Shown here one piece after another: positions 34,944-63,909 of a stretch of DNA of 64,000 bases. The first letter of the stretch is position 1. Each line of letters starts with the position of its first letter. The notes beneath the pieces were generated by a model. The model ran no database searches, was not told the origin of the DNA, and was given only the letters and a program-made list of their open reading frames with translations. Made by a program: the position numbers and the translations under genes. Origin of the DNA: Escherichia coli (GTDB lineage: Bacteria > Pseudomonadota > Gammaproteobacteria > Enterobacterales > Enterobacteriaceae). The stretch is taken from the NCBI RefSeq assembly GCF_003334405.1, contig NZ_QOWM01000005.1; one strand, given 5' to 3'.

Positions 34944-35660
34944 ATGAAAAAGGCTAAAATACTTTCTAGCGTATTATTACTGTGCTTTTCGTCCCCATTA
35001 ATTTCTCAGGCTGCGACACTGGACGTACGTGGTGGATATCGTAGTGGAAGCCACGCCTATGAGACTCGACTCAAAGTCAGTGAGGGATGGCAAAATGGAT
35101 GGTGGGCAAGCATGGAAAGTAATACCTGGAATACCATTCATGATAATAAAAAGGAAAATGCCGCACTCAATGATGTTCAGGTTGAAGTTAATTACGCGAT
35201 TAAACTTGATGATCAATGGACGGTGCGCCCGGGAATGTTAACGCATTTTAGCAGCAATGGCACACGCTACGGACCCTACGTAAAACTGTCCTGGGACGCG
35301 ACAAAAGATCTTAATTTTGGCATTCGCTATCGTTACGACTGGAAAGCTTACCGACAACAAGACTTATCTGGTGATATGTCTCGTGATAACGTTCATCGTT
35401 GGGATGGATATGTCACTTACCATATTAATAGTGATTTCACCTTCGCATGGCAAACGACGCTATACAGTAAACAGAACGATTATCGCTATGCAAACCATAA
35501 GAAATGGGCGACGGAAAATGCATTTGTTCTACAATACCATATGACGCCCGATATTACGCCATACATAGAATATGACTACCTTGACCGTCAGGGTGTTTAC
35601 AACGGCAGAGATAATTTATCGGAAAACAGTTATCGCATTGGTGTGTCATTTAAACTGTAG
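34944..35660 (+). CDS. nanC: N-acetylneuraminic acid outer membrane channel (KdgM family)
   Basis: ORF 34935..35660, start at MKKAKILSSVLLLCF for 238 aa. Confidence 0.9.
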   Translation: MKKAKILSSVLLLCFSSPLISQAATLDVRGGYRSGSHAYETRLKVSEGWQNGWWASMESNTWNTIHDNKKENAALNDVQVEVNYAIKLDDQWTVRPGMLTHFSSNGTRYGPYVKLSWDATKDLNFGIRYRYDWKAYRQQDLSGDMSRDNVHRWDGYVTYHINSDFTFAWQTTLYSKQNDYRYANHKKWATENAFVLQYHMTPDITPYIEYDYLDRQGVYNGRDNLSENSYRIGVSFKL

Positions 35661-56852: not shown

Positions 56853-57620
56853 ATGACTTTACGAACTGAAAATCTGACGGTCAGTTACGGGACAGACAAG
56901 GTACTTAACGACGTTTCACTCTCACTGCCAACGGGGAAGATCACCGCCCTGATCGGTCCTAACGGTTGCGGGAAATCGACGCTGTTAAACTGTTTTTCGC
57001 GGCTTTTAATGCCGCAGTCTGGCACCGTATTTCTCGGCGATAATCCCATAAATATGCTCTCATCGCGCCAGTTGGCCCGCAGGCTTTCGCTGCTGCCTCA
57101 GCACCATTTAACGCCAGAGGGGATCACAGTCCAAGAGCTGGTTTCGTATGGTCGTAATCCCTGGCTGTCACTCTGGGGGCGTCTCTCCGCTGAAGACAAT
57201 GCACGAGTTAATGTCGCCATGAACCAGACCCGGATCAATCATCTTGCCGGTCGTCGGTTAACCGAGCTTTCCGGCGGTCAGCGCCAGCGCGTATTTCTGG
57301 CGATGGTCCTGGCCCAGAATACGCCCGTTGTATTACTTGATGAGCCAACCACCTATCTTGATATCAATCACCAGGTGGACCTGATGCGGTTGATGGGCGA
57401 ACTCCGGACTCAGGGGAAAACGGTGGTCGCTGTGCTGCACGACCTTAATCAGGCTAGCCGGTACTGCGATCAACTGGTGGTAATGGCAAACGGACATGTT
57501 ATGGCGCAAGGCACACCAGAAGAGGTGATGACCCCAGGATTGCTGAGAACAGTATTCAGCGTGGAAGCGGAAATACACCCCGAGCCGGTATCTGGCAGGC
57601 CGATGTGCCTAATGAGGTAG
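56853..57620 (+). CDS. fecE: ferric citrate ABC ATPase
   Basis: 255 aa; Walker A GPNGCGKST and LSGGQRQR signature. Confidence 0.9.
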   Translation: MTLRTENLTVSYGTDKVLNDVSLSLPTGKITALIGPNGCGKSTLLNCFSRLLMPQSGTVFLGDNPINMLSSRQLARRLSLLPQHHLTPEGITVQELVSYGRNPWLSLWGRLSAEDNARVNVAMNQTRINHLAGRRLTELSGGQRQRVFLAMVLAQNTPVVLLDEPTTYLDINHQVDLMRLMGELRTQGKTVVAVLHDLNQASRYCDQLVVMANGHVMAQGTPEEVMTPGLLRTVFSVEAEIHPEPVSGRPMCLMR

Positions 57621-58177: not shown

Positions 58178-58519
58178 TTATACAGGCCAGTTGATGGATC
58201 GATTGTTATCAATGATATCTTCATGAGTCGGTGTCTCACCCAGCTTACCGAAGCTGGCATAAAGTGAAGGCAGACGGGCCCGTCCTTCTCCCTTTTTCGC
58301 CAGAGGGAAAGCGCGAAGCATGGTGGCAGCCTCCCAGTCACAACAATAGGATGGTGTGCACGGCTGCTGACGCCATGATTCAGCGATAGAGCCGGAAAAT
58401 ACGGGGTCAAAGCCGGTATCATTAACCAGAGTCATCGTGACCTGTACTGCGGCTGGATGATCTCCTGCTACTGCAACTGCTAGGCGACCGCGGCTCCCTT
58501 CAGGTAGTGAAGTGGTCAA
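58178..58519 (-). pseudogene. C-terminal fragment of an NAD(P)-binding oxidoreductase-like gene
   Basis: 113 aa ORF resembling only the C-terminal part of F420/NADP-type oxidoreductases (VAGDHPAAVQVTMTLVNDTGFDPV); no N-terminal Rossmann motif. Confidence 0.3.
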
Positions 58520-58795
58520 CTTAAACTGGCCACCGATTTAGAGTTTTTCCAGTAGCGGTGTTCCGATTCGTTTGGGGGCAACCCGCCGTTATTGTCATGC
58601 GGTCTTAGCGAGCTGTAATACCCGATGATATAGTCTGTGATCGCATGAGCAGCTTCGCTAAAGCTTATGCGTTAGCGCTCTACAGAAGTACAGAGCATGT
58701 CTGCACGGTTGCTCTGGGTTATAGAGCAAAATTGCGGGTATATTGAAAGGTGGTACGCAATTTATTACGTGAAAAAGCTGTAATTTCTAGCCAGT

Positions 58796-58817
58796 GTTAC
58801 GTAAAATATAACGTAAC
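58796..58817. promoter_or_regulatory. palindrome at the dnd promoter, candidate DndB operator
   Basis: GTTACGT-aaaatata-ACGTAAC containing TACG-N10-CGTA, overlapping a TAAAAT -10-like hexamer 21 bp upstream of dndB. Confidence 0.35.
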
Positions 58818-58837
58818 AAAATTCACCTTATGCTTTT

Positions 58838-59935
58838 ATGGATTACAGCATGGCTAGTGTTGATGCAGATTACTGCTACTCGTTTCCGGCTATACGTGGC
58901 ATTCAGGCTGGTCGCCCTTTCTATATCGCCACATGCCCGATGCGTATCATCCCGAAAATATTCAGTTTTGATGAAAATGATGTGCCACCGGAATTACGCG
59001 CACAGCGCACGCTAAATAAATCGCGCATTCCCGAGATGGTACGTTATTTGTTGGAAAACCCTAAAGATTATGTGTTTTCAGCTCTGACGGCTTCCATTGC
59101 CGTAGACGTTCAATTTGATGAGTTTCCAGGTTCTAACAATCTGGGGACGTTGTGCGTACCAATGGATGCGCAAATTCTAATCAATGATGGACAACATCGC
59201 CGTAAAGCGATTGAAGACGCTTTAGACGCTCGTCCGGAGCTGGGCCAGGATAATATCCCGGTGTTGTTCTTTGTCGATGAAGGCTTAAAGCGTAGCCAGC
59301 AGATGTTCGCCGATCTGAATAAATACGCCATTCGCCCCAGCCCATCGCTGGCGTCGCTATACGATCATCGCGATGCCTGTTCGAATCTGGCGCGTTATCT
59401 GGCAATGTCAGTAGAGCCGTTTGTTGGGATGACGGAACTGGAAAAATCTGGCATTAGCCAGAGGTCGAATAAGCTATTTACGTTGAGCAGCATCAAGCAG
59501 GCTACCCGCGCATTGTTGGGCAAAGATCCCAAAGAGGATAACTTTGAGGAATGCACCCACATTGCTACCCAATATTGGCAGGCTATTTTTAGTGTAATGC
59601 CTGATTGGCAATTAGCGGCTAAAAAGGAAGTTTCACCGGTTCAATTGCGACAAGATTATGTTCACGCTCATGGCATTGGATTGCAGGCACTTGGGCAACT
59701 AGGATATACCCTGCTGACGGATTATCCTGAGCAATGGCCGGAGAAAATCGCTGCACTCAAAACATTTAACTGGCGTAGAAACAATCCGGACCTCATCAAG
59801 CGAGCGATGCAGCATGGGAAGTTGAGTAAAACCAGTACCGCGATCCAGTTAACCTGCAATGCGCTAAAAACCGCACTCTCAATTCCCCTCACTCCTGAAG
59901 AACAGGAGCTTGAAGCTCAAATGGTTGTCTCATGA
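58838..59935 (+). CDS. dndB: DndB-like DGQHR-domain protein (regulator of DNA phosphorothioation)
   Basis: 365 aa with exact DGQHR motif (LINDGQHRRKAIEDAL); first gene of a four-gene coupled operon. Confidence 0.8.
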   Translation: MDYSMASVDADYCYSFPAIRGIQAGRPFYIATCPMRIIPKIFSFDENDVPPELRAQRTLNKSRIPEMVRYLLENPKDYVFSALTASIAVDVQFDEFPGSNNLGTLCVPMDAQILINDGQHRRKAIEDALDARPELGQDNIPVLFFVDEGLKRSQQMFADLNKYAIRPSPSLASLYDHRDACSNLARYLAMSVEPFVGMTELEKSGISQRSNKLFTLSSIKQATRALLGKDPKEDNFEECTHIATQYWQAIFSVMPDWQLAAKKEVSPVQLRQDYVHAHGIGLQALGQLGYTLLTDYPEQWPEKIAALKTFNWRRNNPDLIKRAMQHGKLSKTSTAIQLTCNALKTALSIPLTPEEQELEAQMVVS

Positions 59936-61554
59936 GTAAATTAGTTCAGGCCTATGATTTGGCCGAATACGAAGATTTTATTAATCAGGAACAGTTCGCC
60001 GGACGTCCTCTGGCCGAATATGTTGCTGAGGTTCAACGAATTTATTGTGCGGATAAACGTCCGTGGGTGATTGGCTACAGCGGTGGGAAAGATTCTTCCG
60101 CTGTGATCACGCTGGTGTATCTGGCCTTGCTCGGCCTGCCCCCGGAAATGCGCAGCAAAGATATTTTTGTGGTGTCGTCCGATACGCTGGTCGAAACACC
60201 GGTAGTCGTGGATCTGATTAAGAAAACGATGTTGCAGATTGAGGCGGGAGCGAAGCGTAACGGCTTGCCGATCACTCAACACGCGGTAACGCCTAAAACG
60301 AATGAAACCTTCTGGGTCAATTTGCTGGGGAAAGGTTATCCGGCTCCAACTCGTAGTTTCCGTTGGTGCACTGAGCGCATGAAAATCAACCCGGTGAGTG
60401 ACTTTATTAAAGATAAGGTCAGCCAGTTTGATGAAGTCATCGTCGTACTTGGTTCGCGCAGTAGTGAAAGTGCTTCTCGTGCGCAGGTGATCGCAAAGCA
60501 CAAGATTGATGGATCACGCCTTGCCCGGCATACCACGCTGGCAAATGCATTCATCTATACCCCCATTGATACCTGGGATGTAGAAGATGTCTGGAAGCTG
60601 CTGCGGGGCGCGTTCCGCTATGCCCCTGAAGATATCGACGAGTGGGAAAGCCCGTGGGGTGGAAACAACCGTCCACTGTGGACGTTGTATATGGATTCTT
60701 CCGCACAGGGTGAATGTCCTCTGGTAATTGATGATAGTACCCCTTCCTGCGGCAACTCGCGTTTTGGCTGTTGGACCTGTACCGTTGTCACTAAAGATAA
60801 GGCGATGGAAAGCCTGATCAAAAACGGTGAAGAATGGATGTCTCCGTTGCTGAAATATCGTGATCTGCTGGCATTTACCACCGATCCGGTGAATAAAGAC
60901 ACGTTTCGAAACTATAAGCGCCGTACTGGTAAGGTGAGCTATCAGTACGCTAAAGAAAGTGATGAGCCGGGGGCTGAGCGTAAGCATGTTCCAGGTCCTT
61001 ACTGGCTAAAATACCGTCAGCAATGGCTCAAAGAATTGCTGGAGATAGAGCGCGATTTGAATGCTCAAGGCCATACCATTACGTTAATTACCAAACCAGA
61101 GCTGCATGCGATTCGTCAGGAGTGGTTGAAAGATCCTAATGAACCAGACTGGTATGACACGCTGCCGGGTATTTACCGTGAAGTGTATCAACAGGATTTA
61201 GACTGGGTGGTGGACGATCAGTCGCGCTTTGATGCCAGCGATGCAGATCTGTTGGTGCAGATAGCGCAGGGATTTGACGTTGTGCCTGAAATGGTGATGA
61301 AACTCATCGAGCTGGAAGTTTCAATGGAAGGCTTAAGCCGTCGTCAGGGCATTTTTGACAAACTTGGCACGATTTTAAAGCAGGACTGGGGCACTCTCGA
61401 AGAAATTGAACAACAACAGGTCACTCTGCAAAAACGAGTTGAACGAGATATTCATCAGGAAGAACTTACAAAGCTGGAAACTGAACTTCAGGTTTTACAG
61501 CGCAGAATTGTTGATGCCAGTGAATCCTCGTTACTGATTGGGGAGGAGAAATAA
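59932..61554 (+). CDS. dndC: DndC-like PAPS-reductase-fold sulfurtransferase
   Basis: 540 aa; PP-loop SGGKDSS; cysteine cluster CGNSRFGCWTC; ATGA overlap with dndB. Confidence 0.85.
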   Translation: MSKLVQAYDLAEYEDFINQEQFAGRPLAEYVAEVQRIYCADKRPWVIGYSGGKDSSAVITLVYLALLGLPPEMRSKDIFVVSSDTLVETPVVVDLIKKTMLQIEAGAKRNGLPITQHAVTPKTNETFWVNLLGKGYPAPTRSFRWCTERMKINPVSDFIKDKVSQFDEVIVVLGSRSSESASRAQVIAKHKIDGSRLARHTTLANAFIYTPIDTWDVEDVWKLLRGAFRYAPEDIDEWESPWGGNNRPLWTLYMDSSAQGECPLVIDDSTPSCGNSRFGCWTCTVVTKDKAMESLIKNGEEWMSPLLKYRDLLAFTTDPVNKDTFRNYKRRTGKVSYQYAKESDEPGAERKHVPGPYWLKYRQQWLKELLEIERDLNAQGHTITLITKPELHAIRQEWLKDPNEPDWYDTLPGIYREVYQQDLDWVVDDQSRFDASDADLLVQIAQGFDVVPEMVMKLIELEVSMEGLSRRQGIFDKLGTILKQDWGTLEEIEQQQVTLQKRVERDIHQEELTKLETELQVLQRRIVDASESSLLIGEEK

Positions 61555-61555
61555 C

Positions 61556-63556
61556 GTGCTCATTAAACAGCTGGTATTACATAATTTTCGGGTATTTAAC
61601 GGTACACATACCATTGATCTGGCACCCAGAAAGCGTCCGCACGATTTGAATCCACGACCTATTGTGCTGTTTGGTGGTTTAAACGGCGCAGGGAAAACGT
61701 CTATCCTGTCGGCGATCCGCATAGCGTTGTATGGACGACTGGCGTTTGGGCTAGCGACTCAACAGCAAGAGTATATCGAACAACTCAGTGCATTGATTCA
61801 TAACGGCGCGTACTATATTGAGCAGCCGGAAGAAGCATCTGTAGAACTGACGTTTACCTATAATAAAGGCGGTCATGAGGCCGAATTTACCGTTACGCGA
61901 ACCTGGAAAAAGGGGAAGAGGGACCGCCTTTCTCTGCAACAGGATGGGCAGCCACTCAGTGAGCTGGATTACGATCAGTGCCAGGGATTTCTAAATGAGT
62001 TAATTCCGCATGGCATTGCTGATTTGTTCTTTTTCGATGGCGAGAAAATTGCAGAACTTGCTGAGGACGAATCCGGTAATATTTTACGTACTGCCGTACG
62101 ACGCTTATTGGGGCTGGATCTCATCTCTAAACTGCGTAACGATTTAATGATTTTTGTTAAGCGTCAGCAATCCAGCCAGCTAGCAAGTTCTCAGCAACAA
62201 CAGATTGCAGAGCTTGAAAAACAGAGTAAAGAATTAGCCTGCCAGACAGAAGCACTGCTGGAAAGCGCCGATTTTGCCAAATCGCGGATTGAGTTTCTAT
62301 CTAAAGATATAACCCATTATGAAGGCTTGCTAAATGCTCAGGGGGGCGCTTTTGCCCAGACTAAAGCGCAGGAAAAACAGAAAGTCGAAACGCTGCTAAA
62401 AGATAAAGAACATCTGGAAAAAGCACTGAGACAAGAATGCGATGGCTCGCTACCTTATGCGCTTGCGCCCACTATTTTGTCTCATTTGCTGCAACAAATT
62501 GCTGATGAAACGCAAATTAAACAGGCAAAAAGCTTTGAAAAAGAGCTGAGCCAGTTTTTAACGCAACTCAGAAATGATATTGCATTTCGTTCTGCGGGGA
62601 CTGGCAAAATAGCAGCTGAAGCGATTACCGATAATCTAAAAGATTATATGGCAACGAAACCAAAAGGTGATTTGCTCTTTGATATCTCTGAGCGTGAAGC
62701 AGGTATGCTTCAACAGTCTATTGAGATAGATAGTAAAAGAGCATGGCAGCGTTTCGAGCTTTATCGCACACAGTTATCTGAGATTGAACAACAGTTAGAA
62801 CAAGCGGCTGCTAATATTGCCCGCGCTCCTGAAGATGAGCAGCTGATGGATCTCTTTGAAAAATTACGTGACCTGGATAGGCAGCGCGAAGCCCAATTGC
62901 AGAAATATCGGTCATTGCTAGAAGATGCTAAACGTAAAAAACAGCAGCAACTGGATTGTGTTCGTCAGATTCAAAAAGCGCATGACGCCGCTCGTTATCA
63001 GCACAGTTATAGCAGTGCGTTTAAGAATGCTCAGGAAACGATAAATTTACTCGATCGCTACAGCGATGTATTAACCCAGGCTCGGGTAAAAACGCTGTCG
63101 ACAAACTTCGAGCTTGCTTACCGTAAGTTGGCTCGCAAAGAGGATTTACAACTTAGTGCGCATATCAACCCTCAAACGTTTGATGTTGAATTAATTGATG
63201 AGAATGGCTCAGTAATTAACCGTAAGTTACTTTCTGCTGGTGAAAAACAGATTTATGCAATTGCTATTCTTGAGGCGCTGGCGAAAACCTCTGGCCGTGA
63301 TTTACCAGTGATCATTGATACACCATTGGGTCGTCTGGACTCTCAACATCGAGATAAATTGATTAATCACTACTTCCCTGAAGCCAGTCATCAGGTTGTG
63401 TTGCTTTCTACCGATACTGAAGTAGATGAACGTTATTTTGTTGATCAGTTGCGTGATGATATCTCTCATGCTTATGAGATTGTGTTTAATGCACATACTA
63501 AGTCATCAACGCTGAAGCCTGGTTATTTCTGGGAATTAACTAAGGAGGCTATCTGA
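61556..63556 (+). CDS. dndD: DndD-like SMC/ABC-type ATPase
   Basis: GTG start after SD gggaggag; Walker A GGLNGAGKTS; long coiled-coil middle; C-terminal DTPLGRLD signature-like segment. Confidence 0.8.
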   Translation: MLIKQLVLHNFRVFNGTHTIDLAPRKRPHDLNPRPIVLFGGLNGAGKTSILSAIRIALYGRLAFGLATQQQEYIEQLSALIHNGAYYIEQPEEASVELTFTYNKGGHEAEFTVTRTWKKGKRDRLSLQQDGQPLSELDYDQCQGFLNELIPHGIADLFFFDGEKIAELAEDESGNILRTAVRRLLGLDLISKLRNDLMIFVKRQQSSQLASSQQQQIAELEKQSKELACQTEALLESADFAKSRIEFLSKDITHYEGLLNAQGGAFAQTKAQEKQKVETLLKDKEHLEKALRQECDGSLPYALAPTILSHLLQQIADETQIKQAKSFEKELSQFLTQLRNDIAFRSAGTGKIAAEAITDNLKDYMATKPKGDLLFDISEREAGMLQQSIEIDSKRAWQRFELYRTQLSEIEQQLEQAAANIARAPEDEQLMDLFEKLRDLDRQREAQLQKYRSLLEDAKRKKQQQLDCVRQIQKAHDAARYQHSYSSAFKNAQETINLLDRYSDVLTQARVKTLSTNFELAYRKLARKEDLQLSAHINPQTFDVELIDENGSVINRKLLSAGEKQIYAIAILEALAKTSGRDLPVIIDTPLGRLDSQHRDKLINHYFPEASHQVVLLSTDTEVDERYFVDQLRDDISHAYEIVFNAHTKSSTLKPGYFWELTKEAI

Positions 63557-63909
63557 TGCTCCCGAATCGAATGGCGCTTAGCCGTCAGACTGAAGATCAG
63601 CTTAAAAAGCTTAAAGGGTATACTGGGATTACACCCAATATTGCTGCCCGGCTAGCATTTTTCCGCTCGGTGGAGAGTGAGTTTCGCTATTCACCTGAAC
63701 GAGATAGTAAGAAGCTGGATGGTACGCTGGTGCTGGATAAAATTACGTGGCTGGGGGAGACACTACAAGCTACAGAATTGGTGCTGAAGATGCTTTATCC
63801 ACAATTAGAGCAAAAGGCGTTGATTAAGGCATGGGCTGCTCATGTTGAGGATGGGATTGCGGCATTGAGAAATCATAAAAGTTTAATTAGCTTATTAAAT
63901 GCTATATAA
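63556..63909 (+). CDS. dndE: DndE-like small protein
   Basis: 117 aa, start overlaps dndD stop; position and size match DndE. Confidence 0.7.
   Translation: MLPNRMALSRQTEDQLKKLKGYTGITPNIAARLAFFRSVESEFRYSPERDSKKLDGTLVLDKITWLGETLQATELVLKMLYPQLEQKALIKAWAAHVEDGIAALRNHKSLISLLNAI

Follow-up and report, generated by a model that had tools for sequence, protein, structure and literature searches.

The question raised by this locus was whether a perfect palindrome just upstream of dndB, in the dndBCDE operon for DNA sulfur modification, served as an operator through which DndB represses its own transcription. The stretch of DNA analyzed (the window) comprised 64,000 nucleotides of an Escherichia coli contig (accession number NZ_QOWM01000005.1). 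A sequence-only reading had described a perfect 7-8-7 palindrome with a TACG-N10-CGTA motif over the dndB -10 region and had proposed it as a plausible DndB operator. The observation was confirmed: positions 58796 to 58817 read GTTACGT-AAAATATA-ACGTAAC, and the arms gained one further pair (T58795/A58818), giving a perfect 8-8-8 palindrome at 58795 to 58818 (TGTTACGT-aaaatata-ACGTAACA in full). Within it were located the exact TACG-N10-CGTA core (58798 to 58815), two ACGT cores (58799 to 58802 and 58811 to 58814), and the hexamer TAAAAT (58802 to 58807, inside the spacer). As argued below, this palindrome was almost certainly the promoter-proximal DndB site autorepressing the DNA-sulfur-modification operon.

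Rarity of the palindrome was considered as evidence and rejected, motif counts and inverted-repeat counts both being unremarkable: (i) the exact TACG-N10-CGTA motif was found twice in 64 kb versus 0.57 expected, and at least two copies were found in 7 of 100 shuffles; (ii) with one mismatch allowed, the motif was found 12 times in the window versus 16.7 expected; and (iii) perfect inverted repeats with 8-bp arms and 4- to 12-bp spacers were common in the window, with 36 raw matches versus about 10 in Markov simulations. The palindrome alone was therefore not beyond chance, and the case rested on its position and its conservation. That the palindrome and motif counts stood within chance expectation was also what could be said for a different account of the site, namely, a binding site for a host transcription factor unrelated to Dnd, or a palindrome that arose by chance in AT-rich intergenic sequence (weighed below against the distribution of the site). 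Apart from the palindrome, the window had a single exact TACG-N10-CGTA, at 35026 to 35043 (TACGTGGTGGATATCGTA), probably a chance match because its spacer was GC rich and no second copy lay nearby.

The position of the palindrome depended on where dndB starts. The operon was composed of the following features:

58850 to 59935, plus strand: dndB, encoding a 361-aa DGQHR/ParB-superfamily regulator (WP_000179013.1; TIGR03233 score of 460.9 bits versus a cut-off of 328)
59932 to 61554, plus strand: dndC, above the NCBIfam equivalog cut-off, the presumed co-transcribed target of repression
61556 to 63556, plus strand: dndD, above the NCBIfam equivalog cut-off, and annotated as such
63556 to 63909, plus strand: dndE, above the NCBIfam equivalog cut-off, and annotated as such
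58840 to 58842, plus strand: probable Shine-Dalgarno sequence GGA, with G58840 invariant and G58841 present in at least 90% of 19 promoters

The longest dndB open reading frame opened at ATG 58838, from which the distance of 21 bp between palindrome and dndB start in the sequence-only reading had been counted, while the RefSeq start was ATG 58850. ATG 58850 was invariant in 19 aligned Enterobacterales promoters, and 58838 was ACG in most relatives; counting from 58850 alone gave cysteines at positions 9, 29, 102, 235, and 336, which is the published numbering. The lacZ fusion primer used in the Salmonella study had GGATTACAGC joined directly to the ATG (PMC4507180). Judged by these comparisons, the true dndB start is 58850, so the palindrome ends 31 to 32 bp before the real start, and the shorter distance has to be given up.

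The dndBCDE locus was 100% identical to that of E. coli B7A, with annotation in agreement, and over a 381-bp region, B7A and another eleven complete E. coli genomes were 100% identical to the window. The closest experimental precedent was provided by Salmonella enterica Cerro 87 (He et al. 2015, Sci Rep 5:12368; PMC4507180): DndB from this strain was a homodimer, shifted only the 123-bp fragment B1 (-85 to +38), and protected two regions, BB1 (-72 to -40) and BB2 (-14 to +4), in DNase I footprinting; BB1 and BB2 each carried a 5'-TACGN10CGTA-3' palindrome, and most binding in EMSA was lost when TACG in BB1 and CGTA in BB2 were mutated; a B1-lacZ fusion was repressed by DndB, with a more than 2-fold rise in a dndB mutant. 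A 15-fold derepression of operon transcription without DndB is given in a review. The motif assignment of the sequence-only reading and its description of DndB as an autorepressor agreed with the literature (PMC4507180), in which the sites are palindromic inverted repeats, two in number, and not simply short repeats.

The published coordinates were transferred to the window by means of the published primers. Primer B1-R and the fusion primer placed the end of B1 at GGATTACAGC, the base before the dndB ATG. Since B1 ended directly before the ATG, the published +1 corresponded to ATG-38 (about 58812 in the window), so that BB2 mapped to about 58798 to 58815, that is, to the palindrome, and BB1 mapped to about 58740 to 58772, a segment containing a second motif copy at 58754 to 58771. 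Because the Cerro 87 primer B1-F had no meaningful match in the window or in 82 loci, this mapping was made by coordinates rather than by base-by-base alignment, and it assumes no large indels. The resulting two-site layout was collinear with the published footprint coordinates:

58795 to 58818, no strand assigned: putative proximal DndB operator, equivalent of BB2, TGTTACGT-AAAATATA-ACGTAACA, recognized by motif, conservation, and coordinate mapping
58754 to 58771, no strand assigned: putative distal DndB operator, equivalent of BB1, TACGCAATTTATTACGTG (TACG-N10-CGTG), recognized by a one-mismatch motif, conservation, and mapping

There were two operators at the dndB promoter, not one, and the distal site had been overlooked in the sequence-only reading. 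The distal operator was centered 44 bp upstream of the proximal center, a spacing found in 10 species loci; it was imperfect (CGTG), and the one-mismatch motif alone was no rarer than chance. Among the closest Enterobacterales relatives, its conserved form was GTACGCAA-N-(T/C)ACGT(A/G), and its left half was lost in Leminorella, Pectobacterium, and Photorhabdus. The four ACGT-type cores at 58755 (ACGC), 58767, 58799, and 58811 made up two dyads, with the cores 12 bp apart in each.

The window and Cerro 87 shared the TACG-N10-CGTA motif, the two-site layout upstream of dndB, the operon order, and the placement of the sites with respect to both start codon and predicted transcription start. DndB of the window was 99% identical to DndB of S. 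enterica subsp. diarizonae and had a cysteine at all five positions mutated in Cerro 87 DndB. The differences were as follows: (i) the distal site ended with CGTG in B7A but with CGTA in BB1 of Cerro 87; (ii) DNA upstream of the operators differed, as seen from the unmatched primer B1-F and from an IS3 remnant at 58516 to 58665 in the window; and (iii) B7A DndB had a sixth cysteine, Cys177, beyond the five studied in Cerro 87. No report on binding of B7A DndB to the exact DNA of the window was found in the accessible literature. The palindrome is the B7A counterpart of an experimentally characterized operator, and it was counted as already known because that operator has been published experimentally in a near-identical Salmonella system.

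Conservation was assessed by scanning a genome collection for DndB, which gave 80 loci from different species with 55% to 99% protein identity. Within 150 bp upstream of dndB, 26 of the 80 loci contained 35 copies of TACG-N10-CGTA (2.9 per kb), versus a single match in the other ~470 kb of surrounding DNA, amounting to an about 1000-fold enrichment upstream of dndB across the 80 species; the variant TACG-N11-CGTA was found upstream of dndB in 14 further loci, versus two background matches. In 19 Enterobacterales promoters, the proximal site took the form T(T/C)ACGTAAAATAT-(A/C/T)(A/G)C(G/A)T(A/C)A, with most positions invariant: T-ACGTAAAATAT and ACGT-A were invariant or nearly so, and the flanks varied. 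The distal site and an AAAAA-CTnTnA block were also conserved across the 19 promoters, and the word ACGTAA/TTACGT was observed 88 times in 23 Enterobacterales promoters versus 2.2 expected. By these alignments and counts, the promoter carries a strong phylogenetic footprint, one that follows dndB rather than the host or the neighboring genes. The earlier proposal of a plausible DndB operator was thereby upheld, given a site that mapped to BB2, was nearly invariant in 19 promoters, and belonged to a motif so enriched upstream of dndB.

The spacing between operators was also compared in the 220 bp upstream of dndB. In loci with two operators, center-to-center distances were 31.5 to 32.5 bp in Shewanella, Photobacterium, and relatives, 41 to 45 bp in Enterobacterales, and 53 bp in two unrelated taxa; further values were 73 bp and 94 bp. 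At 10.5 bp per turn, these correspond to about 3, 4, 5, 7, and 9 helical turns, none deviating from a whole number by more than about 0.3 turn; the vector strength was 0.81 at a 10.5-bp period, with only about five spacing classes independent because the loci were phylogenetically related. This phasing is suggestive of cooperative binding on one face of the helix.

The motif itself varied with taxon. The spacer was N10 in Enterobacterales and Aeromonas and N11 in Alteromonadales; in Shewanella and Photobacterium, one site of each kind, N11 and N10, lay near the start codon, with about 32 bp between them. Promoters of the Vibrio clade (Vibrio, Grimontia, and Aliivibrio) were without ACGT dyads and were enriched for ACATAC, ATAACA, and ACAAAC, with AACAAAC-type words also present among their promoter words, and those of the deepest clade, likewise without ACGT dyads, were enriched for ACTTCC. 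The operator may thus have diverged with the DndB clade; a search of the DndB alignment for candidate specificity determinants, taken as columns constant among ACGT-type species and changed in those of the Vibrio type, found none. The combined proposal, that the operators lie on the same helix face (through cooperative binding or looping of two dimers) and that the operator co-diversified with DndB, was considered tentative, its chances being put a little below even. The whole-turn operator spacings, the N11 spacer in Alteromonadales, and the other half-site words in Vibrio and the deepest clades go beyond published work as modest additions.

The genomic surroundings of the promoter differed between carriers. 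The gene order in B7A was fecIRABCDE, an IS3 remnant, and dndBCDE, followed by dptFGH, convergent on the opposite strand; in the window, the IS3 transposase remnant (58516 to 58665) and the fec iron-citrate operon (56853 to 57620) lay just upstream of the dnd promoter. In E. coli ST2747, a type I Zorya defense system replaced the IS3/fec context, homology to the window started at about 58666, and both operators were identical to those of B7A. From these comparisons, the regulatory region moves together with the dnd module. The dnd/dpt island of B7A ended with a tyrosine integrase gene adjoining a tRNA-Leu gene, as genomic islands typically do. The 209-bp dptF upstream region of B7A contained no DndB operator, and no other exact motif copies were found in 24 kb around the B7A locus. 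For a host-factor site or a chance palindrome, the distribution would be hard to explain: the site traveled with dndB in horizontally transferred islands across many genera and families with different neighbors, the enrichment upstream of dndB was about 1000-fold, and the repeated words changed with DndB clade rather than staying fixed. This account was considered the least credible of all, with next to no probability left to it.

Since a DndB operator at the palindrome could act on transcription in more than one geometry, the promoter elements were examined:

58802 to 58807, plus strand: candidate -10 element TAAAAT, predicted, the top or a top-3 sigma-70 candidate in 16 of 19 promoters by position weight matrix
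58778 to 58783, plus strand: CTGTAA, a candidate -35 element (weak), part of the conserved AAAAA-CTrTrA block and 18 bp upstream of TAAAAT

TAAAAT and CTGTAA at a distance of 18 bp made 8 of 12 consensus matches, and TAAAAT agreed with the published predicted +1 at ATG-38; a sigma-70 promoter and terminator consensus scan of 58400 to 59000 gave none passing the threshold. The claim that the palindrome lay over the dndB -10 region thus stood as far as TAAAAT was found in the spacer, but the -10 status of this hexamer was a prediction only. A conserved A-tract plus CTrTrA block (GAAAAAG-CTGTAAT, 58772 to 58784) was observed in the DNA separating the operators and may represent either a weak -35 accompanied by an UP-like element or an alternative -10 (TGTAAT, 58779 to 58784).

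If TGTAAT were the -10, transcription would start at about 58791, the palindrome would occupy +4 to +27 as a downstream roadblock, and the distal operator would overlap the -35 region; the operator would be the same, the geometry different. Such an arrangement would fit C-T-n-T-n-A at 58778 to 58783 being invariant or nearly so in the 19 promoters (C58778, T58779, and A58783 were invariant), as well as the block reading TATAAT or TATAAA in several species, with TATAAT scoring well in Mixta. It would conflict with the second base of the hexamer being G in many species including the window (TGTAAT and TGTGAT); this base matters more than any other in sigma-70 -10 elements. The position weight matrix scan, moreover, favored TAAAAT in 16 of 19 promoters. 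The published transcription start, being only software-predicted (BPROM/NNPP, with neither RACE nor primer extension mentioned; PMC4507180), left some room for the roadblock arrangement, but the published BB2 numbering (-14 to +4) agreed with TAAAAT. On balance, the roadblock geometry was judged unlikely, and occlusion at TAAAAT was preferred.

A further possibility was that the palindrome acts as RNA, forming a hairpin of 8 bp within the 5' leader of dndB and affecting stability or translation. The predicted folding energy was -8.6 kcal/mol (z = -4.5 versus shuffles), and the two outermost pairs showed some double changes, but any perfect palindrome folds so, and the variable outer positions failed to pair in half of the cells, about half of the sequences. 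Because the six core pairs never varied, they gave no covariation signal, and the invariance of the 8-nt 'loop' suited an element of the DNA or the promoter better than it would a loop. With the predicted start located inside the right arm, the hairpin would not be transcribed. The motif also had a second copy upstream, and the footprints covered both copies in Salmonella (PMC4507180). An Rfam scan of 58400 to 58950 gave no match, and no T-run for a terminator was present at the palindrome. The RNA-hairpin reading was rejected as highly improbable, given the invariant core pairs and loop and the uninformative covariation.

The protein side was compatible with a DNA-binding regulator. DndB of the window was a full-length orthologue containing Cys29, with cysteines at positions 9, 29, 102, 235, and 336 plus 177, and its DGQHR domain scored 297 bits. 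A PDB sequence search with DndB gave no homologue. An AlphaFold2 model of DndB, built from a 46-sequence alignment (mean pLDDT 83.7), gave weak Foldseek matches to Noc in its site-bound form, ParB, and PadC (best E-value 6e-3, probability 0.97), together with further weak fold matches to pNOB8 ParB-N and KorB; these model-based matches agree with the assignment of DndB to the DGQHR/ParB superfamily. The comparison established no counterpart in DndB to a palindrome-reading helix-turn-helix. In later papers describing Xia et al. 2019, DndB is called an ATP-dependent, negatively acting regulator of transcription. Its role as a transcription factor was referred to as 'claimed' in a comparative-genomics paper, with NTPase or nuclease among the other roles proposed (PMC10853773).

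The palindrome is very probably the promoter-proximal operator of dndBCDE, mediating negative autoregulation by DndB together with the distal operator. In the proposed mechanism, B7A DndB would bind as its Salmonella Cerro 87 orthologue does: one DndB homodimer would sit on the two ACGT-centered half-sites of the proximal operator, 12 bp apart, and a second dimer on the weaker distal operator (58754 to 58771). The proximal site would cover both TAAAAT, the predicted -10, and the predicted start (about 58812 to 58814), and both dimers together would occlude the weak sigma-70 promoter and block RNA polymerase, presumably by occlusion of the -10 rather than by a downstream roadblock; binding of the two dimers may be cooperative and on the same face. 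DndB might be released by nucleotide (ATP), as the later accounts of Xia et al. 2019 would suggest. The outcome would be negative autoregulation of dndB and dndCDE, by which the level of phosphorothioate modification would be capped.

Several known systems resemble this arrangement in part. ParB-parS, Noc-NBS, and KorB-OB of plasmid RK2 (KorB being a repressor) pair NTP-switched DNA binders of the ParB superfamily with palindromic sites; DndB has a DGQHR/ParB-type N-terminal domain, binds a palindrome as a dimer (in Cerro 87), and is described, in the accounts mentioned above, as nucleotide-modulated. In Streptomyces lividans (Dai et al. 2018; PMC6186775), dndB is likewise regulated via elements of its own promoter including an inverted repeat, with two phosphorothioate-modified sites repressing and an 'R repeat' acting positively; unlike in S. 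lividans, no GAAC/GTTC modification site was found in the promoter of the window (58720 to 58850).

The C protein/C-box systems of type II restriction-modification are a second point of comparison: there, as with DndB, adjacent palindromic operators overlap the regulator's own promoter, and both kinds of system tune a modification or restriction module carried on mobile DNA. C proteins have an Xre-type helix-turn-helix, both activate and repress, and time restriction against methylation, whereas DndB, which belongs to the ParB superfamily and controls modification genes, is not known to act other than as a repressor.

DndB sets the extent of genome phosphorothioation, and both excessive and insufficient modification do harm in the presence of the restriction partner DndFGH. 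The motif, the two-site layout, and autorepression had already been published for a near-identical Salmonella system; locating the operator in the model strain E. coli B7A helps when dnd expression is to be engineered or partial modification interpreted. The comparative data add independent support, drawn solely from DNA and protein sequences, for DndB as a site-specific autoregulator in many gammaproteobacteria. If the same-face arrangement of the operators and their co-diversification with DndB both prove true, the published doubts on DndB as a transcription factor would be answered, and DndB autoregulation would be an ancestral, family-wide property of gammaproteobacterial dnd modules.
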